From Coleofasciculus chthonoplastes F2-STO-03 (GTDB lineage: Bacteria > Cyanobacteriota > Cyanobacteriia > Cyanobacteriales > Coleofasciculaceae): a stretch of 19,392 nucleotides of DNA. Positions 1 to 19,392 of the stretch are shown piece by piece (position 1 is the stretch's first letter; every line of letters starts with the position of its first letter). The translations under genes and the position numbers were made by a program. Where the stretch lies: positions 1-19,392 of the forward strand of contig JAVJWO010000025.1 of the NCBI GenBank assembly GCA_040222015.1. Reading direction: 5' to 3'. The notes beneath the pieces are model-generated. The model ran no database searches, was not told the origin of the DNA, and saw only the letters and a program-made list of their open reading frames with translations.

Positions 1-138
1 AGCCTTTATATAACAAAAGGTTTGGGCGTTATCTGGATGTTTTTCTCAATTTTGAATAGCTGAGGCGCTACAATTATTATGGGGCTTGGTTTTTGATTGT
101 TTAAACTGATAGTTTAGCATAGTAACTCCGGAAGAACC
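1..138. mobile_element. Probable terminus of an ISL3-family IS or derived MITE, extending beyond the left window edge
   Basis: Minus strand from 138 reads GGTTCTTCCGGAGTTACTATGCTAAACT, matching the GG(C/T)TCTT start typical of ISL3-family inverted repeats. It begins exactly where the histidine kinase loses HATPase similarity (E-V-I|W). No transposase or second IR in the window. Confidence 0.55.
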
Positions 139-763
139 AAATAACCTCCTGTTCTTGACAGTGACAGTTAAACTGCACCACAGAACCTGGCGGTGAATAC
201 TTGACCGCATTCGTCAGCAAATTAGTCAAAATATGCCGCAGGAGTTTTTTATCCATGCAAGCCTTGCTCGCCATACCCGAATTAACCCAACTTATTTCAT
301 GCTGCTTACCGATACCCAGTTGAATATCTTCGACTAAATCCCTGCACAACTGGTTTAAGTTTAAGGGTTGAGGATTAAACTCCAATTTGCCCGATTCCGC
401 TTTGTTGGCAATCAACACATCATCCAACAAGGCTGTCATGCGGTTCACTGAGTCTTTAATTCGATTAAAGTGTTTGAGCTTTTTCTCTTCCGCCCAATTA
501 TTACTATACTGTTCCAGTAATTCTGTCGAGGAAAAAACCGCCGTTAAGGGAACCCTAAATTCATGACTCGTCATGGAAATAAAGCGAGATTTTATTTCCA
601 TACCGACTAATTCTGGAAAGGCTAAGCGGACATCTTCGCCTAATTTTAAATTTTGAGGAGATTCCGCAAAATTAGGAACACCGTCAGAAAATTCTTGGAC
701 GATTAACTCGCGATTAAGGGTTAGATAATCGTAGCCGGGGGCTAATATTTTTAAGGACGGCAT
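101..763 (-). pseudogene. Sensor histidine kinase, disrupted (partial PAS-like N-terminus, HisKA, truncated HATPase_c)
   Basis: H-box SRFISMTSHEFRVPL and N-box ILTNLLTNAVKYS are present, but G1/F/G2 boxes (DxGxG etc.) are absent and the ORF ends in WFFRSYYAKLSV encoded by the IS-like end. The N-terminal sensor-like segment joins HisKA abruptly at FPELVGME|IKSRF. Confidence 0.75.
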
Positions 764-770
764 AAAAATC

Positions 771-1277
771 CTAAGCCTTTAATATTTGATCAGCAAGTTG
801 TTGGAAAATTTCATCGACATAAGCACCTGTTTTCGCTGAGGTTTGATAAAGTCCGGCTTCGAGATTTAAGTCTTTATCTTGAAGGATTTGAACCAGTTGG
901 TTCAGTTTTTCAGGTTCGACTAAATCCGATTTATTTAAGGCAATGGCAATTTTGCCTTTAGGATTAACCGATAAAAACAGGTTAACGTGTTCATCTAATC
1001 GCTCAACGGTTTCCAGGCGGCTAACATCAGCCACGACGATGACACCACTCGCCCCCTGTAAGTAACTGGGAGCGATGGATTTAAATTTAGTATGTCCTTC
1101 CAAGTCCCAGATGAGCAACTGTAAATTTACGGATTCTAGTGCTTTTCGAGAAATCTTCACACCAACGGTGGACAGATACTGATCGCTAAACTGGCGTTCG
1201 ACGAAACGGCGAATCAAGCTAGTTTTGCCCACACCAAAGTCACCGACGAGACAAATTTTTTTTGATATTTTAGCCAT
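771..1277 (-). CDS. Stand-alone Ras-superfamily (Rab-like) small GTPase
   Basis: G1 GDFGVGKTS, G2 YLSTVG, G3 WDLEG, G4 NKSD, G5 TSAK in 168 aa; no C-terminal Cys lipidation motif. Confidence 0.93.
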   Translation of the reverse strand: MAKISKKICLVGDFGVGKTSLIRRFVERQFSDQYLSTVGVKISRKALESVNLQLLIWDLEGHTKFKSIAPSYLQGASGVIVVADVSRLETVERLDEHVNLFLSVNPKGKIAIALNKSDLVEPEKLNQLVQILQDKDLNLEAGLYQTSAKTGAYVDEIFQQLADQILKA

Positions 1278-1317
1278 TGGTTATTGGTTATTGGTTATTG
1301 GTCATTGGTAACATTGG
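1274..1317. repeat. STRR heptamer tandem array (TTATTGG/TCATTGG), about 6 copies
   Basis: CCATTGG TTATTGG TTATTGG TTATTGG TCATTGG TAACATTGG, overlapping the GTPase start codon. Confidence 0.85.
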
Positions 1318-1336
1318 TTCAGGGTAATCCTTCTTA

Positions 1337-1357
1337 CCGTTCCCCGTTCCCTGTTCC
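1337..1357. repeat. STRR heptamer array (CCGTTCC/CTGTTCC) x3
   Basis: CCGTTCC CCGTTCC CTGTTCC read directly. Confidence 0.7.
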
Positions 1358-1402
1358 CTTGTCCTCATGTTTAACTTTAATTATGTCCAACTACTTATGC
1401 TT

Positions 1403-3877
1403 TTAACGTGCGATCGCCTCAAATTCGACAAATCGGCTGTATTTATGGGGTTCATCATCATACACGCCTGTGGGGGGTTTGGTGGTTCCGGAAACTTCTA
1501 AGCGTCTCGCATCGATTCCTTGACGCACCAGTACCTCAGTCACGGCTTTTGCTCGTTCTAGGGCTAATTCCTGATTTTCTAAGGGTGTGCCACTGGGATC
1601 ACTATGACCAACGACTCGGAGTGACTGGTTGGGGTAATCGTTGAGGAATGCGGTCAAGGCGTCCATTTTGGCTTGTTCTGACGCTTTTAATTCGGCGGAA
1701 TTGAGATCGAAGTAGATGCGAGAGGCTAAGGCTAGAGGTTGCAGTTGCACGGTGTTGGTTACAGAGTCTACTCCCGGAATTTTCTCTAAAGCCTGGGTAA
1801 TTTTCTGGGCATCTTTGACCTGAATCACGCTACCTTCTACGGTAACTTGACCATCTTGAAAATTTGTCCAAATTGCTAAACGTTCGGTTTGATTGAGAAT
1901 AGCGGTGACACGATCAACCTCGGCGGCAACTTCGACGAGATCGGGTGGAACCTTGATGGCAATGATATCATTATCTATCTCACCATTTGGTATAGTCGTT
2001 TGGGCAATTTGTCCAGCTTTTTCGACTAGATATTGATTCGGTAATTTGCCAGACAGCGTAATCGTATCGCCTTGTGCATCGACATTTAACCGATAAACAG
2101 CGAGTTCGGGATCGGATGCCAAAGCCACTGCGGTTTCTTCCTCAAACTGCTGATTGACGCCACTGCGATGTAGATGAATACCCCAAGGAATAAAAATTAT
2201 ACCCAATACAGCAGCACAAAGGCTTAACAAGGCGACAGGAACTTTACGCGGTGACTGTTCTGATTTAGGATTAACCAGAGTTAATGATTCCAGAAGGGAC
2301 TGGATTTGCTCCGGTACATTATCCGGATCTCCATCAAATGATTCCATCGCCTTCCCATGGCGCAGAACAATGGTACCCAACGCCTCGCGCATTTTATCGA
2401 TGAATGACTGTGGGGGATCGCCTTGTGTCACCACAGCGAGATAACAGTATCCGGCGACTTCCAAGAGAATGTCACAATGTCCGTATTCGATGCGATCCAG
2501 TTCGGAGATTTCACCGGATTGCATAATACAATCATTGACAAAACTGCGAATGGCTGTCAGCATCCCCGCCACCATATCTGACTCTAATTGTTGTTTGCCA
2601 AAGGGTTGAACTTCAGCAATGACTAATCCGGATGCTTTGTGGATAAGAAAAATCGCTTTGATGCTAAAGGGCATCGACTCTTTAAAAATGAGTTCCGCTT
2701 CAGAGAGTCCCTGACTTTTTGCCCGAATTTTGCGAGCAATTCCCTCCGGACTTAGGGAGTTTTCAACTTTCTGATCAATCGCCCGCATCGCTTCGGACAA
2801 ATATTTATAGAATGTCCCGCCCATGACTGGATAAAGGGCGTCTACCATCGTATCCCGTTCAATATCAATTTGTTCTTTAATCGCCGCACTCATTTCCGGG
2901 GCAATTGCTCGGGCAAATTCACCGGGGTTGCTGAGAATTTGATAGTTAACGGCAGATGGGATAATCGGCGCTAAGGCGGAACAGATGCCCTCTTTATCTT
3001 CTTTGGTTTTCGCCTCGATCATTTCATCCACAATGGGCGCGATCGCACTTGCCATTTCTTCTCTAGCTTCAGCAATTTTCATGCTTAAAATTTGAGTGAT
3101 TAATGGCAGCATTAATTTAATTAAATTACTTGGATTATAAATCTGGCTTTCTAAAGATGAAAATTTTTCTTTTAGCAGTTCAATGCCTTCTTGCGAATCG
3201 AGAATATCCGGTGTTAACAATAATTTCTGCAAGCGTTCAAATTCATCCTCGATATTTGCATCATAAGCGACAATGGATTCCTGGTTAGCGTTTTCGGGTA
3301 CATATTGAAGCTGAGATGATGATTTAAAATACTGGTCAGAGTCTTCGGTTGGCGACTGATCAGATTCGGTCAACCAGGATGAGGATGTTGTTCCATTTTC
3401 TGATGAATCGAAATGATCCGTGTAATTTGGCTGTGATTCTTCTAAATGAGTTTTACTTGGCACGGGATCTGGAAAACCTTTCTCCAAATCTCTCTCCTGC
3501 TCTTGAGAGGGCTTTGAATGGGGGGGGGTTAGGTCTGGCGTTGATTTTTCCAGATGGCGTGAAGAGTCTGCTAGATTAGTAGAGTCTGACTTATCGTCGG
3601 ATTCTGGCGATTGAGGTAAGGTTTCTGACAACGGCGGCGATTTTTTATCTTCCCTTACTTCCAGAGGTTCCACCGGAACGTCTTTACCCGCTTCTACAAC
3701 TTCCTGTTGTTTTAACTGATCAGTATGAGATTTACCCTGAGTTTCCCCGTTCTTCTGAGCGGAAGACATTTCTGGTGCGGTGGCTTCAGTCGAGTTAGGA
3801 TCTTGTAAATCCATCAATAAATCCAGCAAGCCTTCTAGCTGGGATATGCCAGATCCCTTTTTTCCTGGTAAAGCCAT
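1403..3877 (-). CDS. Membrane-anchored OmpA-family protein: disordered N-terminus, helical repeats, longin/roadblock-like segment, TM, two BON-like domains, OmpA_C
   Basis: C-terminal OmpA_C motifs IYFDLNSAEL, VVGHSDPSG, NQELALERAKAV, SRFVEF; BON-like segments LNVDAQGDTITLSG and DGQVTVEG...IPGVDSVTNTV; one TM stretch VALLSLCAAVLGIIFIPWGI. Start placed at ATG 3877 (MALPGKKG) rather than 3988. Confidence 0.85.
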   Translation of the reverse strand: MALPGKKGSGISQLEGLLDLLMDLQDPNSTEATAPEMSSAQKNGETQGKSHTDQLKQQEVVEAGKDVPVEPLEVREDKKSPPLSETLPQSPESDDKSDSTNLADSSRHLEKSTPDLTPPHSKPSQEQERDLEKGFPDPVPSKTHLEESQPNYTDHFDSSENGTTSSSWLTESDQSPTEDSDQYFKSSSQLQYVPENANQESIVAYDANIEDEFERLQKLLLTPDILDSQEGIELLKEKFSSLESQIYNPSNLIKLMLPLITQILSMKIAEAREEMASAIAPIVDEMIEAKTKEDKEGICSALAPIIPSAVNYQILSNPGEFARAIAPEMSAAIKEQIDIERDTMVDALYPVMGGTFYKYLSEAMRAIDQKVENSLSPEGIARKIRAKSQGLSEAELIFKESMPFSIKAIFLIHKASGLVIAEVQPFGKQQLESDMVAGMLTAIRSFVNDCIMQSGEISELDRIEYGHCDILLEVAGYCYLAVVTQGDPPQSFIDKMREALGTIVLRHGKAMESFDGDPDNVPEQIQSLLESLTLVNPKSEQSPRKVPVALLSLCAAVLGIIFIPWGIHLHRSGVNQQFEEETAVALASDPELAVYRLNVDAQGDTITLSGKLPNQYLVEKAGQIAQTTIPNGEIDNDIIAIKVPPDLVEVAAEVDRVTAILNQTERLAIWTNFQDGQVTVEGSVIQVKDAQKITQALEKIPGVDSVTNTVQLQPLALASRIYFDLNSAELKASEQAKMDALTAFLNDYPNQSLRVVGHSDPSGTPLENQELALERAKAVTEVLVRQGIDARRLEVSGTTKPPTGVYDDEPHKYSRFVEFEAIAR

Positions 3878-4071
3878 AATTTGATCCTGCCTTATTCTAT
3901 ATCGGCACCGAGTTCGTAAATGACAAATTGAGTCAAAGTTGGCATTTGACTCAATTCTAATCCTATTCATTAAGAACATCCACACCATTGCTAGCTTTGA
4001 GCCAACATTTGGCTGAAACTAATCACTAGCAACTTGAGTAAATGGCAACATGTCCTCTGTTATTGCTTATT

Positions 4072-4683
4072 TTACTGAGATAGAGGACTTGCTTCTAAAA
4101 GCCTAACATCAACATCCACATCACTACCCGCTGCTTCTTTCAGCTCTGGAGCAAACTCTGTTCCTTTAATTCTTAATCCTAATTCAAACAAAATATCTGC
4201 CATATCATCTTTAGAAACTTTGCCTTCGTTAATTAAGGAAAAGCGCCGTTCGAGTTCTTCAAAAACATAGGATCTCAGGCTTCTAATATCATCTTGGATT
4301 TTTTCACGAGTTTCTGAGAGTTCGTTATGCAAATTATTGGTTTGTTTTTCTAAATTATTATCCAGGGATTCCATATTGCCGGAAAACTTTTTGTTAACCA
4401 TATCGATGGTTTGCCGAATCTCTGAATTATCGTTTTGAACCGTCATATTCAGCGACTTCAGTTTTTTCTCCAGGGAATCTACTGCGGCTCGTAACTCTGT
4501 CGCATAGACAGTCTTGGTTTGCTCGATGCGATCGCGCATTTCTTGCTGGATCAATGCCAGGTTCGATTCAATTTTGTCAATTCGGCTATCGTACTCTCGT
4601 AATTGAGCGCCGAAGATTATATCTCGGATCTGGTCAATATTACCTAGGCGCTCGCGCATTTGTTCTTTACTGATTTCTGCCAT
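4072..4683 (-). CDS. Coiled-coil hypothetical protein
   Basis: Long charged heptad-like helix after the N-terminal motif NIDQIRDIIFG; ATG at 4683 preceded by purine-rich GAGAGGGAAAAGT. Confidence 0.8.
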   Translation of the reverse strand: MAEISKEQMRERLGNIDQIRDIIFGAQLREYDSRIDKIESNLALIQQEMRDRIEQTKTVYATELRAAVDSLEKKLKSLNMTVQNDNSEIRQTIDMVNKKFSGNMESLDNNLEKQTNNLHNELSETREKIQDDIRSLRSYVFEELERRFSLINEGKVSKDDMADILFELGLRIKGTEFAPELKEAAGSDVDVDVRLLEASPLSQ

Positions 4684-4746
4684 ACTTTTCCCTCTCACTT
4701 GGTTAAACGTCTGGTTTGCTCAACTTGATAGGTTGGCGGTCAATAT

Positions 4747-4777
4747 CCCCCGATCGGGGGGTGACACTACTATAACA
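4747..4777 (-). promoter_or_regulatory. Candidate extended -10 promoter followed by a 14-bp palindrome
   Basis: Minus strand TGtTATAGT at 4777-4769, then perfect palindrome CCCCCGATCGGGGG at 4747-4760, upstream of the coiled-coil gene. Confidence 0.35.
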
Positions 4778-4964
4778 CTGCTGCTATCTCTAAAAGATAA
4801 GTCAGAATCTTTCAATTTAGAGTCTTTCCTACTCAGTCAGTTGTTGGATTGATAGGCTGTCTTATCTATTTTTTGCCGTTCCTATTTTTATCGAGTTTAC
4901 CGATTGTTTTCTTAGATTACCAATTCAGCTAAAAAGACTTGACAAATTTAAATTTATGTGAGAA

Positions 4965-4992
4965 GTAGGGGTACGACATGTCGTACCCCTAC
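4965..4992. repeat. GTAG-type REP-like perfect palindrome (28 bp)
   Basis: GTAGGGGTACGACATGTCGTACCCCTAC is its own reverse complement; it lies just 3' of the last DUF928 gene. Confidence 0.85.
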
Positions 4993-5025
4993 GATGGTGT
5001 ATATTAGTGGATCAATTTCGATTGA

Positions 5026-5844
5026 CTACGGTTGTGCCGAAGATAATGGTACATCAACAGGCGTATTCTGGGAGGCGAGTGACTCACCCACCAGATTCCT
5101 AAGTCCCGCCGCGTTCAAAAGGTTGACCCACTGATTCGCCACCTCCGAATCACTCGGATAATTGCGGCGCAGTTCAACGAGCTGTGCTAGAGTATCCTGC
5201 CACAGTTGTGCCTCAGCATAGAGTTCCACTTTTTTTGTCGGTGATGCCTGCGCTAACTGAGTTTCTAAGGTAGGAGCGATCGCAACCCGTCTCACCCATC
5301 CTTCAACCACCAGATCATTAGAGCGTTCCTCCTCGGGCGGACAGAGAATCGAGAACGTCCAACGATAATCCTCACCCACTGCCAACGGTGATAAGCTAAC
5401 GTCGTGGGGTAGATTTAAGGTGATGATTCCTGACTTGCCATTGGTACGGAATTTGCTTTGATAAACGAGATTTCCCTCGCTATCTTCCAGGACAAACTCC
5501 ACAGGTAAGGGTGTACCAGGATTGGGTGAGGCTGGTAAGTAAACAAAAAAGCTGGGATAAGCCGCAACAGTTGTACCAAAGCGATCGCTCGGCATTAAAG
5601 CCGTTAACGGTTTACCGACAACGGGACAATTTCCTCCAGCACTTCGGGTTGCCCCTCCTTCGACACGATTCGCCGAGCCGATTCCCCTTGGGGGTTCATA
5701 TTTGTTGGTTGTCCAGGTTTGGGGTATTCCTTGAGCCTGGAGAATTTGGGGGCTGTAGATCAGCGCAAAGCCTGCGGCAAATAGCGCCAGTTTTACCCCC
5801 ACAGCGAGAGAAAATCGACAAAAACGATGTCGTATTTGTGCCAT
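5026..5844 (-). CDS. DUF928 domain-containing secreted protein
   Basis: Signal-peptide-like N-terminus, RVEGGATRS..C, TTVAAYPSFFVYLP, YRWTFSILC, GWVRRV, YAEAQLWQDTL, W..LL..AGL. Confidence 0.88.
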   Translation of the reverse strand: MAQIRHRFCRFSLAVGVKLALFAAGFALIYSPQILQAQGIPQTWTTNKYEPPRGIGSANRVEGGATRSAGGNCPVVGKPLTALMPSDRFGTTVAAYPSFFVYLPASPNPGTPLPVEFVLEDSEGNLVYQSKFRTNGKSGIITLNLPHDVSLSPLAVGEDYRWTFSILCPPEEERSNDLVVEGWVRRVAIAPTLETQLAQASPTKKVELYAEAQLWQDTLAQLVELRRNYPSDSEVANQWVNLLNAAGLRNLVGESLASQNTPVDVPLSSAQP

Positions 5845-5860
5845 GACAGTTACTCAGTGA

Positions 5861-6694
5861 TTAATTCGGATTCGTTTTGACACCCTGAGCTACTGGTTCT
5901 TCAACAATTTGCTCGAGTTCGACTGAACGGAGTAATTGGTTCCACGCCGCCTTCAAGCCCTGATCATTGGGGCGATCGCGACGTAGTTCCACTAAGGTAT
6001 TCAACGTTTCATACCAAAGTCGCTCACTGGCGTAGATAGCCACTCGCTGTTCCGGCGTTGCTTGTTGGATGCGGCGTACCAAATTGGCATCAGGTTCCAC
6101 ACGCTCGAACGCACCATCGACATATACATCACCGGATGGTTCTTGAGTATTACAAATCAGTTTTAACGTCCACTTATATGTCTGATCAGTCTCTGGAGGA
6201 AGGACACTACTTTCTAAGTTGGGCAACGTTAAGCTCATAATACCGGGAGCGCCGACAACATATTGTTTTTCATCTCCCTGAGAATCTTTTCCGGTGTAAT
6301 GGGCGAAGGCGTACTTCGTGGAGTAAATTTCCTCACCTTTGGCATTACGCACCGTCAACTCTACTCCCCAAGCTTTGTTTTTCGGTAGATACCAAGAGAG
6401 AGTAGGATACTCAGCGATGGTTTTGCCAACACCAGACTCAGGAACCAATGCGATCGGAACTTGACCGGGTTTAGGGTTTGCAATACAAGGTCCTCTTGTA
6501 CCACCACCTTCTCTATTGCCTGGAATCGCTGGACCTTGACTGTCTGGCGGCGTGAATTCCCATTCGGTGGGAATATCACGGCTGAGGGGTGAACCCCCTA
6601 ACTGTGCTTGTACCCCAGCGGGAACATTAGCCACAAGTCCAAGGGTTAGCGCTAAAGCGACTGTAAAACGGGATGAACGGTTAAACCAAGCCAT
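5861..6694 (-). CDS. DUF928 domain-containing secreted protein
   Basis: Signal peptide (VQA|Q), NREGGGTRGPC, GKTIAEYPTLSWYLP, YKWTLKLIC, YASERLWYETL, WNQLLRSVEL. Confidence 0.88.
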   Translation of the reverse strand: MAWFNRSSRFTVALALTLGLVANVPAGVQAQLGGSPLSRDIPTEWEFTPPDSQGPAIPGNREGGGTRGPCIANPKPGQVPIALVPESGVGKTIAEYPTLSWYLPKNKAWGVELTVRNAKGEEIYSTKYAFAHYTGKDSQGDEKQYVVGAPGIMSLTLPNLESSVLPPETDQTYKWTLKLICNTQEPSGDVYVDGAFERVEPDANLVRRIQQATPEQRVAIYASERLWYETLNTLVELRRDRPNDQGLKAAWNQLLRSVELEQIVEEPVAQGVKTNPN

Positions 6695-6931
6695 AATAAA
6701 TTAGAACTCCTTCTTTATCAGAGTCTTTCAAAGTTTTTGGAAAAATCTGTCTGAGCAGATACTTAACCTTCCGACAAAAGGGATGATAATTGCAGAATTT
6801 TCAGGTTTCTCGCCGAATAATTTGCCTGAATAGTTCTATTCTAGCTTGAGATAGGGAGTGAACTGAAACCTGAGGTTGCACTTTTATCTGAATCTTTATG
6901 TTAGTTTTTCCCTATCTTTGTATTGGTTGTT

Positions 6932-7771
6932 TTATTCAACAGAAGTAGCTCCTGAGTTAGACAACGATTCAGTTAAAGCAGCACTCCTGTCTGGATTTAA
7001 TTGCTCAGAAAGACTTTGTAAACCGACTGATTGCAATAACTTGTTCCACGCGGTTTGCACGTTGCGATCATTGGGAAAATCCTGATGGAGTTCTACCAAG
7101 GTGTCTAACGTGTCATACCAGAGCAATTCCTTGGCATAGAGTGCCACTCGTTCTTGAGGAGTTGCCTGTTGAGTCCGCATTTTTAGCGTTAGACTCGGTT
7201 CAACTCGCTTAATCCCACCACCCACAACCATATCTGCTGAACGATCCAGGGCGTCACAAACCAATGCTAATTGCCAGTAATATAGCTGATTCGTTTTCAG
7301 GGGAGCAAGATTAGCAGAAGTAGGAATCGCTAAACTCATAATTCTCGGCATCTGTGTTTCCCCTGTCACCGACTGCTCCAAGGAATACTTAACCCGGTAA
7401 ATTTCTTCATCATTAGCATTTTTCAGTACAAACTCGACTGCCGATGCTGTTGTTGATGGCATATACCAGAATAATTTGGGATATTCCTCTAGGGTTTTAC
7501 CGATCAATGATTCTGGAACTAGGGCAATTAGTGATTGATTATTCGGCGTACAATTCTCTGGACCTCGCGTTCCACCCGCTTCTCGATTCACAGGAATCGG
7601 CTCAGGTGTTGAACCTTCTGGAGTTTTGAATTCCCACTGAGTTGGTAGTTCAGCACCCAGAGAGGTAGTCCTAACCTGGGTTGGCACTTGAGCGACTAGC
7701 TTGGTGGCTAGTCCTAGCATCAAAGCTATTGTTAAGAATGTTAGGTGTGATAAGCGGGTGAAACAAGTCAT
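6932..7771 (-). CDS. DUF928 domain-containing secreted protein
   Basis: Signal peptide, NREAGGTRG...C, GKTLEEYPKLFWYMP, YYWQLALVC, YAKELLWYDTL, WNKLLQSVGL. Confidence 0.88.
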   Translation of the reverse strand: MTCFTRLSHLTFLTIALMLGLATKLVAQVPTQVRTTSLGAELPTQWEFKTPEGSTPEPIPVNREAGGTRGPENCTPNNQSLIALVPESLIGKTLEEYPKLFWYMPSTTASAVEFVLKNANDEEIYRVKYSLEQSVTGETQMPRIMSLAIPTSANLAPLKTNQLYYWQLALVCDALDRSADMVVGGGIKRVEPSLTLKMRTQQATPQERVALYAKELLWYDTLDTLVELHQDFPNDRNVQTAWNKLLQSVGLQSLSEQLNPDRSAALTESLSNSGATSVE

Positions 7772-8248
7772 AATTCAGATATATGCTCGTAGAACCGAGT
7801 CTTTAGTATATAGATGTTAGAGCAGAAGCCAAGGTTCCAGACCCAGGTTAGTTTCCGTCAGACATAATCACCGTTTTGGCTCAGGCAAGCATCTACCTTA
7901 AGGGAAATGTTGCTGAATTAAGAGTTTGTCGTAAACGCTGCAAATCATGCTAGCCCACTTTTGGTCTGACTACGACCCCTGGTTATATCAGTACCATTGT
8001 CTTAAGTTGTTACTATTTTAACGTTAGACATGGGTAATCCCGGAACGTTGTTTCGACTCTTATCTAAATCTTCATCACTCTTAAAGCCAATTCCTGATTT
8101 CCATGCTTCTATCGCCTGAAAATTTAAATCTTTTGTAAAGATATAACTGTTCTCACTGGGGTGAAATACATGAATTCCTGCGAGATGGGGAATTCGCCCT
8201 TGTCCTCCAAGGCGACAAGGACTAGAGAAACTGGGCATCCAATGTTCC

Positions 8249-8268
8249 AGACGTGCTAGGGCGCGTCT
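8249..8268. repeat. Degenerate REP-like palindrome
   Basis: AGACGTGCTAGGGCGCGTCT resembles the AGACGTGCCATGGCGCGTCT element at 19142-19161. Confidence 0.45.
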
Positions 8269-8295
8269 AGAAGCAGGGGGAACAGAAATTAGAGC

Positions 8296-9093
8296 TTATC
8301 CGAGTAGAATCATATCTAACCCGACAGACTTCAGCAGTTTGTCCCAAGCCGCAATCACCGCCGGATCATTCGGGCGATCGCGCTGGAGTTTCACCAACGT
8401 CCCTAACGCTTCATACCACAGTCGTTCTTTTGCGTAAAGTACCACACGATCCTCAGGTGGTGCTTGCTGTAAGCGACGGCTTAGGGTAGGGTCAATTGAC
8501 ACTCGCCGGATTGTGCCTGCCATATAAACATCACCAGATGGATCATTGGGGTTACAGATTATTCTTACAGTCCAGTCATACTTCTGATCCACTTTCAGTG
8601 GCAGAGAACTACCCTTTAATCTCGGTATCGTTAAACTGAGTATACCGGGCGTGCCAACGACCAATTGGGCATCTTGTCCCTGATCATCGCTTGAGGTGCC
8701 ATGGGCAAAGGCATATTTGGTCGAGTAAATTTCCTGACTATCACTATTGGTTAACTTAAACTCCATGCCCCAAGCCCTTGTCCGGGGTAGATACCAAAAG
8801 ATAGTGGGATACTCCGCAAGTGTTTGTCCCATACCAGACGCCGGTACTAAGGCAATGGGATAATTGCTGAGGCAACCCGCAAACGGTAAATTGCTGCTAT
8901 CTTGTAAACCTGAATCACCAGAATTAGGCAGTGGTGAGGATTCCCATTGATCGGGTAACTGAGAACTGATCGAGGCATTGCTTAACTGCGCTTGTACCCG
9001 AACTGGCTCTTTCAGGCTCAACCCCACGATTAAAAGCAATGTTACTAAAGCGGTTATGGCTAGTTTGTGTGGGAAAAAATGGATGAGTTTCAT
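8296..9093 (-). CDS. DUF928 domain-containing secreted protein (lacks the GGTRG motif)
   Basis: Signal peptide from ATG 9093 (MKLIHFF...VQA|Q), GQTLAEYPTIFWYLP, YDWTVRIIC, YAKERLWYEAL, WDKLLKSVGL. Confidence 0.87.
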   Translation of the reverse strand: MKLIHFFPHKLAITALVTLLLIVGLSLKEPVRVQAQLSNASISSQLPDQWESSPLPNSGDSGLQDSSNLPFAGCLSNYPIALVPASGMGQTLAEYPTIFWYLPRTRAWGMEFKLTNSDSQEIYSTKYAFAHGTSSDDQGQDAQLVVGTPGILSLTIPRLKGSSLPLKVDQKYDWTVRIICNPNDPSGDVYMAGTIRRVSIDPTLSRRLQQAPPEDRVVLYAKERLWYEALGTLVKLQRDRPNDPAVIAAWDKLLKSVGLDMILLG

Positions 9094-9168
9094 AATAAAT
9101 ACATAAAAATCTTTTTTTGTCAATAAAATTATTGAATGAAAATGGCTACCCCATAACAACCAATGTTC

Positions 9169-9188
9169 AAAGGTGCGATCGCACCTTT
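9169..9188. promoter_or_regulatory. 20-bp perfect palindrome centred on HIP1 in a divergent intergenic region
   Basis: AAAGGTGCGATCGCACCTTT between the divergent DUF928 and transglutaminase-like genes; regulatory role unproven. Confidence 0.4.
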
Positions 9189-9295
9189 AAAATATTGCAG
9201 ATGCACGCCCGGAGCATCCGCCTAAATGAGGGGGTATTGACACCACCTGAGTATAGATGGCGACGCTGAAATCTAAATCTTGATATAGACTGATC

Positions 9296-10975
9296 ATGAT
9301 TCCTAATCCTGATTCCTCTGTGTCACCTAAATTGAAATCTTTCCACACCATCAGACCGATTGGGGCGGCTGCCCTACAGGGTATTGCTTTTTGGGGAGAA
9401 AAATTGATTGCCATCGATGCCACGAGTGGCTATCTGTTGCAAATCAACCCCCAAACTGACGATACCAAAATTTTGAATTCCTCGCCGGATATCGATTTTG
9501 CCGATGCGACGGGTTTAGCCATCGTAGGTGATACGCTGTGGTTGACGCGGAAAGAGAGTGTATACTATTGCCAACTCAACGGCGATCTCCAGCTTCAGCA
9601 TTTCCTGACATTACCCTACACCGCCAATGGTATTGCACTCAAGGACTCGACGGTCTATATCACCTGTCAAAAAATGGGGTATATTCTGATTTACAGTCGG
9701 GATACCGGGCAGGAGATTACCCGCTTATATGCCCCAGGAATTGGCATGGAGAAGATTACGGTGCGGGATGAGGAACTTTGGCTCTCGGATCAGGAAGAAC
9801 AGACCGTGTATTGTCTCGATCGCGCCACCGGAAACATTATTTTCAGCGTCTTAACTCCTTTTGAGAATCCCACGGGTTTAACCTTCTACCGAAACCCGCT
9901 TTCCAATCAGGACATTCTCTATGTTGCCTATGCTAGCGTTGAACCCTATATCCGCGATAATCCCAACGCCCAACCTAATCATGAACTCCAATATCGCGAT
10001 CGCACGTTTATTCATCCTCTGTACTTTCACTACAATGCCGAGGAACGCTATGCCCTCTCCAATGGCTATTTAATTGAAATGTCTTATGTGGAGGAACTGT
10101 CCCCCCTAGACGACGTAGCCATTCAGGACTTAGAATGGCGTATCGCCTTACCCTCAGAAACCCCACGCCAAAAAATCCGCGCCATTGAAGCCGTTGGGAT
10201 TCCCTTCACCGAAGAAATCCAAGGCAATCAGCGGGTAGCGGTGTTTAAATTTGATCACCTCGCCCCCGGAGAACGTCATTTATTTGGCTGGAAGGCGCTT
10301 CTGGAAGTTTGGAGTATCAAATATCGGATTACGCCCAGAGATTTAGAAAATACGCCAGAATTGCCACTTGAATACAAATCCCGCTATTTGGTAGATGATG
10401 ACGAGTTAGCCATGGATACCGAAATCATCCGCCGCGCCGCCCTTGACGCTGCGGGTAGAGAAACGAATTTATTGCGACAAATGTATAGTATTCGCAATTA
10501 TGTCTATGACCAACTCGCTTATGGAATTAAGCCCCATATTGATACCCCCGATGTGGTGTTAGCGCGAGGGATTGGTTCCTGTGGGGAGTATCTCGGTGTC
10601 TTGTTAGCCCTATCCCGTCTCAGTGGGATTGCTTGTCGTACCGTTGGTCGTTACAAATGTCCCGCCCATCCCGAGCAACGAGACATTCCCTTACAACCTG
10701 ATTTTAATCATGTTTGGATGGAATTTTACTTACCAGGATTTGGTTGGGTTCCCATGGAATCTAATCCCGATGATACTCGCGAAGGTGGCCCTTACCCGAC
10801 TCGATTTTTTATGGGATTGGCTTGGTATCATGTAGAAATTGGTAAAGGAATTACGTTTGAAACCCTGACCAGTCAAGGTGTTCCAGTTAACAAGGAAGAG
10901 GTTTCGATTGGTGATCTGGCGATTAATCATGTCCGGTTCAAAATTCTCGAAGACTTACCACCTCCGGGAGAATAG
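9296..10975 (+). CDS. Transglutaminase-like superfamily protein with N-terminal beta-propeller-like region
   Basis: Core motifs GSCGEY (Cys), ACRTVG, FNHVWMEFYLPGFGWVPME; repeated GIAF/GLAI/GIAL/GLTF blade-like motifs in the N-terminal ~210 aa. Confidence 0.85.
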   Translation: MIPNPDSSVSPKLKSFHTIRPIGAAALQGIAFWGEKLIAIDATSGYLLQINPQTDDTKILNSSPDIDFADATGLAIVGDTLWLTRKESVYYCQLNGDLQLQHFLTLPYTANGIALKDSTVYITCQKMGYILIYSRDTGQEITRLYAPGIGMEKITVRDEELWLSDQEEQTVYCLDRATGNIIFSVLTPFENPTGLTFYRNPLSNQDILYVAYASVEPYIRDNPNAQPNHELQYRDRTFIHPLYFHYNAEERYALSNGYLIEMSYVEELSPLDDVAIQDLEWRIALPSETPRQKIRAIEAVGIPFTEEIQGNQRVAVFKFDHLAPGERHLFGWKALLEVWSIKYRITPRDLENTPELPLEYKSRYLVDDDELAMDTEIIRRAALDAAGRETNLLRQMYSIRNYVYDQLAYGIKPHIDTPDVVLARGIGSCGEYLGVLLALSRLSGIACRTVGRYKCPAHPEQRDIPLQPDFNHVWMEFYLPGFGWVPMESNPDDTREGGPYPTRFFMGLAWYHVEIGKGITFETLTSQGVPVNKEEVSIGDLAINHVRFKILEDLPPPGE

Positions 10976-10986
10976 TTTTGCCGAAT

Positions 10987-11119
10987 GTAGGGGCGGGTTT
11001 GTGGGCTTTCGTTTTGCTATTGATGATAACATTTGTTCAAAACCCGCCCTTTCTGAGTGTAGGGGTTGGTTTCACTATTATCGTTTTGGGTTAAATCCAG
11101 ATGTAACTCGCGCCCTCCC
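10987..11119. repeat. Tandem GTAG-type REP-like inverted-repeat elements
   Basis: GTAGGGGCGGGTTT (10987-11000) pairs with AAACCCGCCCT (11040-11050); a second degenerate copy starts GTAGGGGTTGGTTTCAC at 11059. Confidence 0.7.
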
Positions 11120-11173
11120 CGACTCATCCTTCGCGGCGTTCAAGGACATGGTTTTGATGCCCTGTTTTTCTAC

Positions 11174-11250
11174 GAATGACAAATGACAAATGACGAATGA
11201 CAAATGACGAATGACAAATGACAAATGACAAATGACGAATGACAAATGAC
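11174..11250 (+). repeat. STRR heptamer array (RAATGAC) x11
   Basis: Eleven consecutive AAATGAC/GAATGAC units ending 4 nt before the hisA ATG. Confidence 0.95.
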
Positions 11251-11254
11251 GAAT

Positions 11255-12028
11255 ATGAACGTTATTCCAGCTATTGATTTACTTGAAGGTCGCTGTGTAC
11301 GGTTATATCAAGGCGACTATGAACAATCGCAAGTTTATAGTGAAAACCCAGTTGAGGTGGCGAAACAATGGGTTGACCAAGGGGCGAGTCGGTTACATCT
11401 GGTAGATTTAGATGGGGCGAAAGCAGGACACCCTGTTAATACTAAGACCATCGAAGCCATTGTCCAAGCGGTATCGGTTCCCGTAGAAGTTGGGGGCGGA
11501 TTGCGGGACAAGGAAGGGGTTAGTCAACTGCTTTCTCTTGGGGTTCAGTATGCGATTCTGGGAACGGCGGCGGTTGAAGATCATCCCTTGGTCGAACAAT
11601 TGTGTGCTGAATTTCCCGATCGCATTATTGTGGGGATTGATGCGCGAAATGGACAGGTAGCTACACGGGGATGGTTGGAAACCTCAGCAATTACCGCCAC
11701 TCAATTGGCACAGCAAATGGCGAATTTGGGTGTATCGGCAATAATTTATACAGACATTCACCGGGATGGTACACTCACCGGACCCAACCGCGACGCCTTG
11801 CGAGAATTAGCCAGCCATGTTTCAATTCCAGTAATTGCTTCTGGGGGTGTCAGTTCGATTACAGACTTATTAAGTTTACTGGCGTTGGAACCCTTAGGCG
11901 TGATTGGTGCGATCGTGGGTCGCGCCCTGTATACTGGTGATGTTTCCCTCAAAGAAGCCATTCAAGCCGTGGGACAAGGACGCCTTCAGGATATTCCCCC
12001 CGACTTGGGATCGTCTTCACTGGCGTGA
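11255..12028 (+). CDS. hisA: ProFAR isomerase HisA (histidine biosynthesis)
   Basis: [81 protein letters not shown]. Start set at 11255 (MNVIPAID); 11246 lies in the repeat. Confidence 0.97.
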
Positions 12029-12105
12029 CATCCTCCGACGATGAATCAAAGATTACATCGTCAGGTTCCCAACCTCACGATTGGGCATTGCTCCCCTACG
12101 CCAGT
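12026..12105 (-). mobile_element. IS200/IS605-family right-end remnant (non-autonomous)
   Basis: Minus strand ends ...GGAGGATGTCA with a subterminal bulged hairpin GACGATG-AATC-AAA-GATT-A-CATCGTC (12037-12062) and a second stem CCCAA...TTGGG (12068-12085), the layout of IS200/IS605 right ends. The inner boundary is uncertain. Confidence 0.55.
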
Positions 12106-12140
12106 TATCTAGACACATATAAGTACACACGCCATTTAGG

Positions 12141-12170
12141 GTAAGGGCACGATAATCAGAGTGCCCCTAC
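12141..12170. repeat. GTAG-type REP-like inverted repeat
   Basis: GTAAGGGCAC-N10-GTGCCCCTAC. Confidence 0.7.
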
Positions 12171-12307
12171 AGGTAGCTCTCAAACTCCTCATTAGTTACA
12201 GGAAACAGGGAACTCAGGATCAAGGTGGCGGTTACTAGGGCTGACAGCAGTAGCCAAAATACCTAGATTTACCTATAATCGACCCAGAATTTTTGGCTTA
12301 AAAATCT

Positions 12308-12922
12308 ATGGGTCGATTCTTGTCGATAGGGGAAGCCGCCGCCGTCAAGGGGGTGTCAATAGACACCTTGAGGCGATGGGAGAAAGAAGGAAAAATTCAG
12401 TCAGTGCGGACAGAGGGAGGACATCGCCGTTATGATATCGACGATTTGATTGACTTTATCGAGAGCCGCAAAACGATTGCCTACGCTCGTGTTTCAAGTC
12501 ATGACCAGAAAAGTGACTTAGAACGACAAGCACTAGTTCTAGAGGCTTATTGCTTGCATCATGGCTACAACTTCGAGATTATCAAGGATTTAGGTTCTGG
12601 ACTCAACTACAAAAAACGAGGACTACAGAAGCTACTCCAGCTTATTATGGACGAACAGATAGACCGACTGGTGATTACCAACAAAGACAGGCTGTTGAGG
12701 TTTGGGTCAGAACTCATATTTAGTTTGTGCGAATACTCTGGGGTGGAAATAGTCGTCCTCAATCGAAAAGAGGATTCTAGTTATGAGGAAGACCTGGCGG
12801 CTGACGTGTTAGAGATTATTACGGTATTCTCCGCTAGACTGTATGGCTCACGTTCAAGGCGCAACCAAAAGATTTTAGAGAGGCTGGTTGAAGCTGTTGA
12901 CACCTCCGATAAATCTCTTTAA
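12308..12922 (+). CDS. tnpA: IS607-family transposase (MerR-like HTH plus serine recombinase)
   Basis: LSIGEAA...GVSIDTLRRWEKEG...RTEGGHRRY; YARVSSHDQKSDLERQ; DLGSGLN; KDRLLRFG; FSARLYGSRS. Confidence 0.95.
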   Translation: MGRFLSIGEAAAVKGVSIDTLRRWEKEGKIQSVRTEGGHRRYDIDDLIDFIESRKTIAYARVSSHDQKSDLERQALVLEAYCLHHGYNFEIIKDLGSGLNYKKRGLQKLLQLIMDEQIDRLVITNKDRLLRFGSELIFSLCEYSGVEIVVLNRKEDSSYEEDLAADVLEIITVFSARLYGSRSRRNQKILERLVEAVDTSDKSL

Positions 12923-12952
12923 TATACAGAAAGCATAGATTTTTATCCGGTC

Positions 12953-14173
12953 ATGACCCAAGCCGAATCCCGCACTTATGTCACTACAACAACCAACCGT
13001 TGGGCGGTTGCGTTTTTGAATGACGCGGCGACTGTCGGCTATGATGCCAAGATTGAGTCCTTGAAGCTACTATTAGAGCAAAAGCCTCCTAGTAAGTCAA
13101 AGATTAATACTCAACTACAGAAAAATCATGACATCAACAAACGACAGGCGAACAGCATTATCGCCTATGTTGAAGGCGCAGTTAAGTCGGCCATTGAATG
13201 CCGTAGTAATCATATAAAATTGCTGCAAGGCAAACTCAAGCACACAACGGAAGTTATAGAGAAACTCGAAAAAAAGATTAACGCGCACAGTAAGTATCTG
13301 CAAGCCGTAGAGCAGGTAAATCGAGGGAAAAAGAAGAAGGTCTCAAAGTCCCTCAAGCCCAAGTATCCAGACGCTTGCCCGATGCGGTGCGCTCATCATT
13401 TAACCCTGTACCAGTTTGCCAAAGTTAAGCTTCATCAAAAGAAGCGGTATGCTCATAAGTTAAGGCAGAAGATCGCCCAGATCAAAACCTCTCCTGTACA
13501 CGTAAATCTGGGCAACAAGTATACCGTGGATGGGAATCTAGACGGCTTTAGCCAAATCAAGGTCAATATTCAATCTCAGCCCAAGGGACGCACTGAGGCT
13601 ATTTTGGTTGATGTTGTTACCGACTTGACTGAATTAGCCTTAGAGCATAAGCGTCCCATCATTGTCGAAAAACTCGATTTTACCGACAAGAGAAAACGGT
13701 TGCGCGAGTTAAATGCAAGGGCACGCCGTATGCTGAGTAACTTTGCCTACTCAAAATTCCTTCAACTCCTATTAGCCAGATGCTTCAAGCTAGGCATCCA
13801 AGTCATTGAGGTCAATCCGGCTTACAGTAGCTGGATTGGATTGATTAAGTTCATGTCTACCTATGGAATGAACTCTGCCACAGCTGCTGCCTTCGTGCTA
13901 GCGCGACGTGGAATGTTTTTATCTGAAAGGCTGCCAGCCAGAACCGCCTATCAAGGAATGGAACCGAAGAAGCACACCTGGTCACATTGGCAGTCGGTGG
14001 CGAAACGAGCCAAAGGTTCGTCTCGCCACTCCTTCTATCAGCCCAGACTAACAGTCTACTCTAGGTTACGCTCAGTACGGAACGGGGGATCATGGGATGA
14101 ACCGTCATCGGCTGCTGTCAATCCCTTCGGGGAGCTTAGAGAGGTCGGTGAGAATCCGACGGGAAGTCGTTAG
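12953..14173 (+). pseudogene. tnpB: TnpB-related protein, probably internally deleted and nuclease-dead
   Basis: RuvC-II-like IIVEKLDF, LSNFAYSKF, VNPAYSS and AAAFVLARRG are present; no GxD(L/V) RuvC-I motif before DGNL, no Asp before AAA (MNSATAAA) and no CxxC zinc finger. The ORF remains open. Confidence 0.7.
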
Positions 14174-14225
14174 TACCGCATGACGGCGTATCTTGCATAG
14201 GGAAAGCATAGATATTTTTTAGCGG
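14060..14225 (+). ncRNA. Candidate omegaRNA (right-end RNA) scaffold of the IS607 TnpB
   Basis: Overlaps the tnpB 3' end; CCCTTCGGGG (UUCG loop), GTCGG-TGAGAAT-CCGAC stem, CCGTCAT (14102-14108) complementary to ATGACGG (14180-14186). The 5' boundary is a guess. Confidence 0.55.
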
Positions 14226-14299
14226 CAAATAGGAAACAATAGATCAGGAGAAACCATTTTTTCCTAACTGAACCCTGACTCCTCAATAAATGATCCCAG

Positions 14300-15661
14300 A
14301 TGTCTGCCAAAGTTATCCTCACAGTCATCACAGGAAGTCTCAAAGGTGAGAACTTTGAATTTTGCGATCGCACGACTTGTATTCTAGGTCGCGCTAAAGA
14401 TTGCCATCCCCGACTCCCTAATGATCGGTATCACAAGACTATCTCGCGCTATCACTGTTTGCTGGATATCAATCCTCCCGATATCCGTATCCGTGACTTC
14501 GGTAGTCTCCATGGCACTTATGTTAATGGTAAGATTATCGGCAAGCGTCACCGATATCAAACGCCAACTGAAGGGGCAAAGATACAGTTTCCAGAGTACG
14601 ACTTAAAGAATGGCGACGAAATCAAGCTTCGCCATACCCGACTGCGCGTCAAAATTGAAGGGGTAAACCACAGTGACGTGAACTCCTCTGAATCACAAAC
14701 AATTGGTGTTGATCCCAGTGAGAAACCTATCTTACCCCGTCAAAGTGGGTTAAAAAGCGCTTCAACGACTCTAGGATGTGACTCTTATCTACCTAAGATT
14801 CGCGGCTACACAACGCTGAAACGATTAGGTCAAGGGGGATTAGGAACCGTCTATTTAGCCCATCATGACCAAACCGAGGAATTAGTCGCCCTCAAAATCA
14901 TGCGATCGCACAACAGGCGTCCGAGTGATGCGATCAGGCAATTCCTGATGGAGGTTGACAAAACCAAAGCTTTACAACACCCTAATATTGTTCGACTCCG
15001 GGAATTGGGTTACGACCAGGATTCCTTTTTTTTTACCATGGATTATTGTAATGGTGGCAGTGTTCTGGACTTAATGCAGCAACGCGGCGGCAAATTATCA
15101 GTCAATGAAGCCCTGTCGATTACGCTGCAAGTCTTGGATGGGTTAGACTATGCCCACACTATCCAAGTACCCGATATTACCCTAGCCCAAAGTGGTAATA
15201 TTCAAGCCCAAGGATTAGTACACCGGGATCTCAAACCGGGGAATATCTTTCTTGCCAATCTAGGATTAGGGCGTCTTGCCAAAGTTGCTGATTATGGATT
15301 AGCTAAGGCGTTTGATTTGGCAGGATTAAGTGGGTTGTCTCGCAGTGGTCAATATGCGGGGAGTCCGGCTTTTATGCCCCGACAACAGGTTCTTGATTTT
15401 AAATATGCTCAACCCGATGTTGATGTTTGGGCAACAGCGGCGTGTTTGTACTATATGTTAACGGGCAGATTACCTCGCGATTTTGGTGATCAAGATCCAT
15501 TCTGGGTTGTATTGCAAACTCAGCCTGTACCGATTCGGGAACGAGATGCTGGAATTCCTAAGGGATTAGCGGAGGTGATTGATTTAGCGCTTACCGATAA
15601 CCCTCAGATCTATTTTAAGAGTGCTGCTACTTTTAAACGGGCGTTGGAAAGTGAATTATAA
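14300..15661 (+). CDS. FHA domain-containing Hanks-type Ser/Thr protein kinase
   Basis: FHA: ILGRAKDC, ISRYHC, DFGSLHGTYVNG, LKNGDEI. Kinase: LGQGGLGTVY, VALK, HPNIV, VHRDLKPGNI, VADYGLAK, DVWA. Confidence 0.92.
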   Translation: MSAKVILTVITGSLKGENFEFCDRTTCILGRAKDCHPRLPNDRYHKTISRYHCLLDINPPDIRIRDFGSLHGTYVNGKIIGKRHRYQTPTEGAKIQFPEYDLKNGDEIKLRHTRLRVKIEGVNHSDVNSSESQTIGVDPSEKPILPRQSGLKSASTTLGCDSYLPKIRGYTTLKRLGQGGLGTVYLAHHDQTEELVALKIMRSHNRRPSDAIRQFLMEVDKTKALQHPNIVRLRELGYDQDSFFFTMDYCNGGSVLDLMQQRGGKLSVNEALSITLQVLDGLDYAHTIQVPDITLAQSGNIQAQGLVHRDLKPGNIFLANLGLGRLAKVADYGLAKAFDLAGLSGLSRSGQYAGSPAFMPRQQVLDFKYAQPDVDVWATAACLYYMLTGRLPRDFGDQDPFWVVLQTQPVPIRERDAGIPKGLAEVIDLALTDNPQIYFKSAATFKRALESEL

Positions 15662-15712
15662 GTTATAAGGTAGATGTTTAATTAAGTGGGTTTGGTACAA
15701 GTTATGTTTTTT

Positions 15713-15755
15713 TAACGCTCCAGGTAGCAGAGGGTAACGCTCCAGGTAGCAGAGG
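15713..15755 (+). repeat. Tandem duplication of a 21-bp unit (period 22)
   Basis: TAACGCTCCAGGTAGCAGAGG at 15713-15733 and 15735-15755. Confidence 0.9.
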
Positions 15756-15833
15756 AGGTTGGCTGATTGGGTTGAAAGGTTTGTCGGATTTTATGTCCGG
15801 TGGAATCAATCAAATTTGGGTGAAGATAAGTTT

Positions 15834-17507: not shown

Positions 17508-17563
17508 CACTAAGTAGGTTGGTGGAAATAAACTTAACTAGATTAAATTTTGTAAAAGATATT

Positions 17564-17630
17564 GTCGGGTGGGCAAATTACGTTCATTTAACAATTTCAC
17601 CAAAAATTATATCCAGAAAGCCCACCCTAC
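17564..17630. repeat. GTAG-type REP-like inverted repeat
   Basis: GTCGGGTGGGC (17564-17574) and GCCCACCCTAC (17620-17630). Confidence 0.65.
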
Positions 17631-17786
17631 TCGCCGACTTTATCTTCTAAATCTCGAAAATCCGGAACTTGTGGGAAATTCTCACCACAACGACATCCCC
17701 AATCTACTCGCTCCCTCAAGCGCGATCGCAGGTAGTGAAATCCTTAAGGGAGTGGTTTCATTTTGGATGAGTAGAGTTGTGGTCAT
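17627..17786 (-). pseudogene. Probable Uma2-family endonuclease 5' stub joined at a HIP1 site to the 3' end of another gene
   Basis: AGGAAGGA RBS then ATG 17786 gives MTTTLLIQNETTPLRISLPAIA, resembling the N-terminus of cyanobacterial Uma2 proteins as I recall them; resemblance stops at GCGATCGC (17722-17729). Beyond it another frame reads RSRLRERVDWGCRCGENFPQVPDFRDLEDKVGE* (stop 17627-17629). Confidence 0.5.
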
Positions 17787-17854
17787 AGAAATATTCCTTC
17801 CTGCCAAGACGTGCACCTTCCATAATTGGTCGAGATGTCCTGTATCAAATGCAA

Positions 17855-18112
17855 TTACAGTTCATACTTCTTCCTTATCTCTTCCAGACTAATACCCTTT
17901 CCTTCCCTCAAACTGCTTCGAGCCTTTTCTATTCGCTTAAGGAACTGTGGATTCTGTAAAAGTAACTCTTCCCACCAATCTTCCGAGTCTTCTAAACCAA
18001 TTAGAAGACCAATTGCCATTCCCTCACGAGTAATAACGATATAATCCTTTTCAGCGACCTGTAAGTAACCCGGTAAATCCTGGCTTACTTCTTCAATTGA
18101 TACCTGTTTCAT
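17855..18112 (-). CDS. Type II antitoxin, Phd/YefM family
   Basis: MKQVSIEEVSQDLPGYL...IVITREGMAIGLLI Phd-like N-terminus, acidic C-terminal half ending GKGISLEEI; ATGA overlap with the toxin stop. Confidence 0.8.
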   Translation of the reverse strand: MKQVSIEEVSQDLPGYLQVAEKDYIVITREGMAIGLLIGLEDSEDWWEELLLQNPQFLKRIEKARSSLREGKGISLEEIRKKYEL

Positions 18113-18432
18113 AATTCTGGTCTCCCATACTCAGCTAACCACTTAATTGCTTCAGCCTTCTCTTTAACAGCAAGAATTTCTACTGTCCCAGTATCTACAG
18201 TGTAAATCACATCATAGAAGACTCGCAGATCATCAACCCGTAACCGATACTGAGGCTGGGCGATCGCTTTAAGACGCTTAATCCGACTCTTACTCAGCTT
18301 TTCGGGTTCATATCTCAGGTGTATCTCAATTGCATCTAAAACTTTGGCGCGATCGCTAGCTCTAACTATTCCAATATCCTCCTGTGCTTCAGGGGAAAAA
18401 ATTATATCGTATTTCACGATAACTTGACTCAA
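18109..18432 (-). CDS. Type II toxin, RelE/ParE family
   Basis: YDIIFSPEAQEDI, IKRLK, YRLRVDDLRVFYDV, VEILAV; 107 aa. Confidence 0.85.
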   Translation of the reverse strand: MSQVIVKYDIIFSPEAQEDIGIVRASDRAKVLDAIEIHLRYEPEKLSKSRIKRLKAIAQPQYRLRVDDLRVFYDVIYTVDTGTVEILAVKEKAEAIKWLAEYGRPEL

Positions 18433-18483
18433 TAAATTGATGATTTATATTTGATATTTGAGTAGGATACCATATCTATAAAA

Positions 18484-19391: not shown

Positions 19392-19392
19392 A

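Follow-up and report, generated by a model that had tools for sequence, protein, structure and literature searches.

The window analysed here is a 19,392-nucleotide stretch of DNA from Coleofasciculus chthonoplastes F2-STO-03 (contig JAVJWO010000025.1, positions 1 to 19,392), and its left end carries four genes that encode, in reading order, a coiled-coil protein, a membrane protein with DUFX, transmembrane (TM), BON-BON and OmpA regions, a small GTPase of the Rup type, and the remnant of a histidine kinase. All four open reading frames (ORFs) lie on the minus strand (4072-4698, 1403-3988, 771-1277 and 101-763), and just 7 bp (764-770) separate the last two, in agreement with an earlier note on this DNA that had described four co-oriented genes. 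By their components and order, the genes are assigned to the Group 1 Rup systems of Wuichet and Sogaard-Andersen (2014, Genome Biol Evol 7:57; PMC4316618), whose neighbourhood, in the available text of that paper, consists of a coiled-coil DUFY, a DUFX-TM-OmpA protein, Rup, and a signalling output. The system is already published and apparently uncharacterised, and the window holds a new, partly decayed copy of it. Its features are as follows.

1-138, no strand assigned: right part of a 184-bp repeat resembling a miniature inverted-repeat transposable element (MITE), inside which the contig ends (seen from repeat ends at other contig ends)
101-763, minus: remnant, 220 amino acids (aa), of a PAS-PAS-HisKA-HATPase kinase (alignment to intact relatives, Pfam)
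593-599, minus: junction of an in-frame 657-nt deletion, with a short GGAA microhomology (alignment to the relatives L031, L033, L034 and L035)
771-1277, minus: Rup small GTPase, 168 aa (ORF list, Pfam, alignment, PDB sequence matches)
1403-3877 (ORF open from 3988, 861 aa), minus: DUFX-TM-BON-BON-OmpA membrane protein (ORF list, Pfam, comparison with relatives)
1406-1714, minus: OmpA_C-type peptidoglycan-binding domain (Pfam OmpA, E 9.5e-15; PDB matches to OmpA, Pal and MotB)
1724-2125, minus: two BON domains, periplasmic, the end of the second approximate (Pfam BON, two stretches, E 4.8e-12)
2186-2242, minus: single TM helix, residues 583-601 (hydropathy 2.5)
2264-2668, minus: predicted longin domain, residues 441-575 (AlphaFold2 model, structural comparison, conservation)
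2675-3250, minus: predicted cytoplasmic helical stalk, a run of helices of about 22 residues, residues 247-438 (AlphaFold2 model)
4072-4683 (ORF open from GTG 4698), minus: coiled-coil protein, 203 aa, the DUFY of Group 1 Rup systems (ORF list, Pfam, alignment)

Conservation of the cassette and its core proteins

The order of these genes is conserved far beyond chance. A search with the GTPase returned 271 loci, the best 80 of which were fetched; 17 had too little flank, and among the 63 with at least 4.5 kb upstream and at least 1 kb downstream, 58 hold all four genes, so that the gene-neighbourhood analysis suggested by the earlier note finds the order kept. The same order is seen in a distant subgroup with about 40% GTPase identity (L113-L115, L117). 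Linkage is also apparent in one set of 301 genomes of the phylum, in which relatives are not independent and the counts therefore describe linkage rather than provide a test. The GTPase was matched in 46 of these genomes. All 44 genomes with a match to the central domain of the membrane protein belong to these 46; the coiled-coil protein was matched in 43 (42 of them Rup-positive), and the N-terminal domain of the output in 45 (44 of them GTPase-positive). The closest named relatives are Coleofasciculus genomes, with GTPase identities of 90-98%, and among close relatives the three core genes are intact, with synonymous-biased divergence.

Among metatranscriptome contigs of relatives (three runs, mostly 90-95% alike), one covers 1346-4874 and others 596-1299, coverage being interrupted in the repeat-rich gap that separates them; such contigs cannot show a transcript and are not taken as evidence of co-transcription. 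A scan for promoters and terminators gave no excess over shuffles (7 vs 10.4 and 7 vs 5.1). The gap between the membrane-protein and Rup genes (1278-1402) contains short tandem TTGGTTA repeats whose length varies among relatives, and the contigs of related strains break there.

Judged by its sequence, the GTPase is Rab-like, as had been claimed, and is not a Rab. Pfam places it in Ras/Roc (Ras, E 6.5e-27), and its best PDB sequence matches are Rabs (E 9e-23). It is a stand-alone small GTPase with eukaryote-like G1-G5 motifs (G1 GDFGVGKT, G3 DLEGH, G4 NKSD, G5 TSAK) and, as in Group 1, its G3 motif lacks the catalytic Gln, the position being occupied by His in at least 90% of 54 aligned sequences. 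Eukaryotic Rabs end in a C-terminal cysteine prenylation motif; no C-terminal cysteine motif is present in Rup, which ends in ADQILKA. The Glu of G3 (DLEG; residue 60, window 774-1277) is invariant in the 54 cyanobacterial sequences, with DLAG, DIYG and DLYG in distant members; it occupies the place of Ala59 in Ras and could affect exchange or hydrolysis. The available text of the 2014 paper describes Group 1 Rup proteins as very similar to Rab/Ran/Ras/Rho, with none characterised by then (PMC4316618).

Apparent Rup fusions among 92 long relatives, comprising four DUFX-TM-OmpA-Rup proteins (P0175, P0185, P0225, P0234), one OmpA-Rup (P0204) and one Rup-PAS-HisKA (P0166), were considered as evidence of interaction and rejected, because the OmpA tails look out of frame, because a single TM would place Rup in the periplasm, and because P0175, P0225, P0234 and P0166 are each the sole member of their cluster. 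Frameshift read-through is their likely origin, although they do display the cassette gene order in distant bacteria. Besides the four DUFX read-throughs, 5 of the 92 long GTPase proteins gave only weak partial matches in the DUFX comparison (independent E-value, iE, 0.011-0.04).

The TM-BON-BON-OmpA partner named in the earlier note is recovered in full, with one hydrophobic segment, two BON stretches and an OmpA domain. Its N-terminal region of about 200 aa is acidic, of low complexity and variable in length, and the number of stalk repeats differs between DUFX homologs (multiple stretches). Among representatives clustered at 50% identity, the DUFX region has 3,629 relatives (E up to 0.001), and a TM helix follows the longin in 130 of the 138 homologs that have at least 80 aa beyond it. 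By the definition of the fold in the available text of PMC3747258 and PMC10933270, the central domain is predicted to be a longin: the secondary structure assigned by DSSP to the AlphaFold2 model follows that definition, and longins align over model residues 195-331 from their own residue 0-2, at 5-18% identity in the structural alignments. Roadblock chains cover only model residues 196-305, starting at their own residues 16-29 and leaving helix 185-193 unmatched (these being aligned ranges, not coordinates), and on the model the domain does not conform to a roadblock/MglB fold. No longin is found among the best 60 of the 104 PDB sequence matches. In the ESM Atlas, the longin part matches archaeal hypothetical proteins only (0.80-0.81), a lead at most. 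In G005, G056, G062 and other g5 genomes, a second DUFX paralog of about 1,205 aa is encoded apart from the main cassette, on different contigs.

The coiled-coil protein gives only weak coiled-coil-type matches in Pfam, and has no TM segment; its N- and C-terminal motifs are conserved across 68 sequences. An N-terminal motif seemingly shared by DUFY and DUFX, plausible by eye, was dropped as not significant (best iE 0.0055 among 223 proteins, with the window protein unmatched). The gene likely starts at ATG 4683, which is preceded by the ribosome-binding-site-like GAGAGGGAAAAG, and the 203-aa form is present letter for letter in the Atlas; the likely start of the membrane protein is Met38, at 3877.

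The output module and the kinase remnant

The N-terminal domain of the outputs is predicted to adopt a PAS fold; its profile has no significant match among PDB sequences, and Pfam PAS_9 is matched in just 7 of 53 members. Kinases account for 47 of the 97 PAS-bearing outputs and class III cyclases for 32, so the output anticipated as two-component does include kinases but is not specifically two-component. Additional PAS and GAF sensors are also carried by the outputs. According to the available text of the 2014 paper, a Group 1 output is a kinase or a diguanylate cyclase/phosphodiesterase (GGDEF/EAL) with an invariant N-terminal Gln, which was proposed to complete the active site of a Rup that has no Gln in G3 (PMC4316618). 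Intact relatives of the window kinase carry such a Gln (Q124 and/or Q128): Q124 is invariant and Q128 is kept in at least 90% of 53 sequences, the latter aligning with the Gln of a QxxNE helix retained in 9/9 diverse sequences. In the window kinase both Gln fell within 219 deleted codons, and this loss is the decay of one gene rather than the sign of another family.

Related modules occur elsewhere. In the same genome, the region C52:115966-117938 (-; L111:3967-5939) holds a second, intact Rup with G3 DLEGN, followed by what is presumably a cyclase-tail fragment and by a 255-aa PAS-PAS protein without a catalytic domain, a second decayed output. In the distant subgroup, Rup can be followed by a gene for a stand-alone protein of about 132 aa with a QQxxN-like helix at its end (L113:4794-5192, L117:6452-6853), the kinase or other output then being a separate gene. 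Finally, a response regulator of the OmpR type (REC-wHTH), encoded in the genome of the window at C95:9970-11079 (+; L118:2971-4080), carries the Rup-associated PAS and helix fused C-terminally and is a possible route from Rup to transcription, on which the available 2014 text is silent (PMC4316618).

The kinase gene of the window is a broken remnant in this assembly. The intact gene of the relatives L033-L035 codes for a protein of 504-553 aa with PAS, HisKA and HATPase_c domains; that of L031 reaches a contig end. The window gene lacks nucleotides 167-824 of the intact gene, a loss that kept the frame, removed most input domains and left 57 N-terminal codons fused in frame to HisKA. At the other end, homology ceases at residue 208 (window 139), before DQGIGI, and the final 12 codons are derived from the repeat. 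The HATPase domain of an active histidine kinase has N, G1, F and G2 boxes; the remnant keeps the H and N boxes, lacks G1, F and G2, and so has no complete HATPase domain. In Pfam, HisKA is matched at E 5e-12 and HATPase_c scores 21.5, under the cut-off of 26.4. The 'His kinase' of the earlier note is thus right as to HisKA, but the 220-aa product has its ATP-binding boxes cut off and, because the gene is broken, cannot be the output in this assembly. The missing parts are found nowhere else in the assembly, which is 99.99% complete.

Copies of the 184-bp repeat are near-identical, with imperfect terminal inverted repeats (24/30 identical) that are reminiscent of the ends of ISL3-family elements. 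Contigs end in the left part of the repeat 12 times and in the right part 7 times (window 1-138 plus 18 other contig ends), and an 8-bp flank common to contigs C136 and C146 is the target duplication at one repeat site. By eye, one copy interrupts a kinase-like reading and another a DUF1016-like reading. In relatives the kinase gene is followed by mutL, which here lies on contig C15; this contig stops within the other repeat half, just past the position of the kinase stop, suggesting that insertion of the repeat with an adjacent deletion truncated the 3' part of the kinase gene, and we infer that the two contigs join.

Over about 4,960 bases, a contig from run X1 differs from the window at 6 positions. 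It carries about 660 additional bases at the deletion junction and continues for 1,272 letters beyond window 139 without the repeat; it may represent a sibling or the source culture and is not independent support. Since it lacks both lesions, and since codon changes in the remnant are 21 synonymous vs 10 non-synonymous, the lesions appear to be recent. The kinase has been lost or truncated in other ways in three of seven close relatives (L032, L036, L037), so that its decay is independent in 4 of 8 Coleofasciculus copies, including the window, while the core genes persist.

Proposed mechanism and competing explanations

Our preferred reading, to which we give a probability of about 0.6, is that of a Group 1 Rup cassette with a recently broken last gene, in which a wall-tethered longin loads Rup and Rup switches PAS-bearing outputs. 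The observed BON-BON-OmpA domains would hold the membrane protein at the cell wall, as the function of OmpA_C suggests, and the protein would present its predicted longin on the cytoplasmic stalk. By analogy with TRAPP, Mon1-Ccz1 and MglB, Rup would dock on this longin, probably a dimer, and most likely have its nucleotide exchanged there, perhaps with DUFY as a scaffold for the longin-Rup platform. Rup would bind a dedicated N-terminal module, PAS plus QxxNE helix, of outputs that are interchangeable (histidine kinase, class III cyclase, GGDEF), and would switch them; the helix may also supply Rup's missing catalytic Gln, an idea that goes back to the available text of PMC4316618. With the adjacent kinase lacking both the QxxNE helix and the ATP-binding boxes, the three intact core genes could signal only via PAS paralogs, namely the C95 REC-wHTH-PAS regulator and the C52 PAS-PAS protein beside the second Rup. 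As to the sensed signal, the anchor prompts only a guess, namely envelope tension or wall remodelling. The trans-envelope switch of the earlier note keeps its outline, in that a wall-anchored protein, Rup and a signalling output fit the synteny and co-occurrence and the predicted longin offers a plausible regulatory route; it is not new, because a nearly identical hypothesis was published in 2014 (PMC4316618).

Several points weigh against the preferred reading. Identity of the DUFX model to all structural matches is 5-19%, and roadblock matches tie with longins in Z (12.5-12.6). Longins also occur in SNAREs and coat adaptors without an exchange role, according to the available text of PMC10933270, and for this reason the shared fold shows no function. 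Conservation of helix 1 may be structural, the beta strands being conserved as much (0.64-0.75), and so may that of the output Gln, which sit in a linker helix typical of PAS-coiled-coil junctions. In the 301-genome sample, a longin match is missing from G068 and G170, both of which have Rup and PAS, and a Rup match is missing from G152, which has PAS. Furthermore, the kinase lesions are read from the assembly rather than from reads of this genome, and the direction of signal flow is constrained by no result.

Signal might run from the inside out, as in a conservon. The PAS-bearing kinase or cyclase would then be sensor and GTPase-activating protein (GAP), and Rup would be an end switch whose action on the coiled-coil and the wall-anchored protein positions or remodels a structure of the envelope or the cell pole. 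Such wiring accords with the retention of the QxxNE Gln, with the additional PAS and GAF sensors of the outputs, and with the 2014 proposal, a computational description, of a conservon-like complex in which the output Gln completes the Rup active site (PMC4316618, available text). It is nonetheless unlikely, as the catalytic domains behind PAS are interchangeable second-messenger and phosphorelay outputs that suit regulation by Rup; the persistence of the core during kinase decay is compatible with either direction. Rather improbable is a longin that serves as an MglB-like GAP or a passive membrane landmark instead of an exchange factor. The GP motif that precedes beta2 in GAP-type longins such as FLCN, SMCR8 and NPRL2 (PMC12290439, available text) is absent from DUFX, which has an HKASGL loop there whose S and G are invariant in 106 sequences, and 4 of the 7 distant members listed have Thr or Gln in place of the longin Arg. 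A cassette wholly dead in this strain, or kinase damage that is an assembly artefact, would fit the decayed C52 locus (cyclase-tail fragment, PAS-only protein), the end of the window in a repeat where contigs break and the near-identical X1 contig without either lesion, but is very improbable given three full-length core ORFs with synonymous-biased divergence, a frame-preserving deletion within unique sequence, the absence of the missing kinase parts from the assembly, and a mutL-side contig that ends in the other repeat half exactly where post-kinase DNA is expected.

A bolder form of our preferred reading, wall-tethered loading of Rup, can be offered only tentatively: a complete bacterial Rab-type switch, in which a peptidoglycan-tethered true longin is the exchange factor and the PAS-QxxNE module, on kinases, cyclases and transcription regulators, is both effector and Gln-donating GAP. 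If true, envelope state would be linked to cyclic AMP, cyclic di-GMP and phosphorelay outputs by a longin-Rab module found in neither eukaryotes nor Asgard archaea, and a longin that acts on a Rab-like GTPase in bacteria would be relevant to the origin of the eukaryotic longin-Rab pairing. The fold assignments for the two unnamed partner domains yield three small, soluble, assayable proteins (Rup, a longin fragment and a PAS-helix fragment) with which the 2014 hypothesis becomes testable. With its broken kinase, the window copy is ill suited to such tests; intact cassettes are listed in tractable Nostoc strains (PMC4316618, available text).

Neighbouring features and known systems

Directly upstream of the cassette, four tandem DUF928 genes with signal-peptide-like N-termini occupy 5026-9159 (-), at least three of which are kept in place in Coleofasciculus relatives. 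Further along, a MerR-resolvase gene and a TnpB-like ORF (12308-14173, +) form what we take to be an IS607-type element, the TnpB-like ORF matching weakly and perhaps internally deleted. Finally, a ParE-like toxin and a Phd/YefM-like antitoxin are paired at 17855-18432 (-).

In its available text, the 2014 paper tabulates Group 1 hosts that include Nostoc PCC 7120, Anabaena variabilis, N. punctiforme, Acaryochloris and Cyanothece 51142 (PMC4316618, Table S2), and its named loci include all3030, Npun_F1891 and cce_4705. The literature searched, outside of which lie most subscription journals, yielded neither experimental work on a Group 1 Rup nor a paper that connects DUFX with longins, and none of six Nostoc/Cyanothece locus tags was mentioned in it. 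Bacterial longins are not claimed here as unreported, because this coverage is partial and because the available text of Dey 2016 records 'Longin/Roadblock' in bacteria without separating the two.

The cassette resembles the published Group 1 Rup system in having the same four components in the same order and a G3 without Gln. In the available 2014 text, DUFX and the output N-terminus were left without a fold, whereas here they are predicted to be longin and PAS, respectively; typical outputs there were kinases and GGDEF/EAL proteins, whereas here 32/97 are class III cyclases and the same genome holds a REC-wHTH paralog. Unlike the published cassette, that of the window has a broken kinase. 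Relative to the eukaryotic longin exchange platforms (TRAPPC1/C4-Rab1, Mon1-Ccz1-Rab7, Fuzzy-Inturned-Rab23) and the Asgard longins, a single predicted longin resides here in a single-pass, peptidoglycan-anchored protein, with 5-18% identity, a GTPase that lacks a prenylation motif, and a putative dimer and exchange activity. Likewise, MglA/MglB and the actinobacterial conservons (CvnA-D) encode a small GTPase together with a partner of the roadblock/longin superfamily, to which conservons add a histidine kinase, but the GTPase here is a Rab-like Rup rather than an MglA, and its partner is anchored in membrane and wall. Finally, DUFX aligns only from about residue 27 of MglB, without the MglB N-terminal helix and with an extra C-terminal helix.

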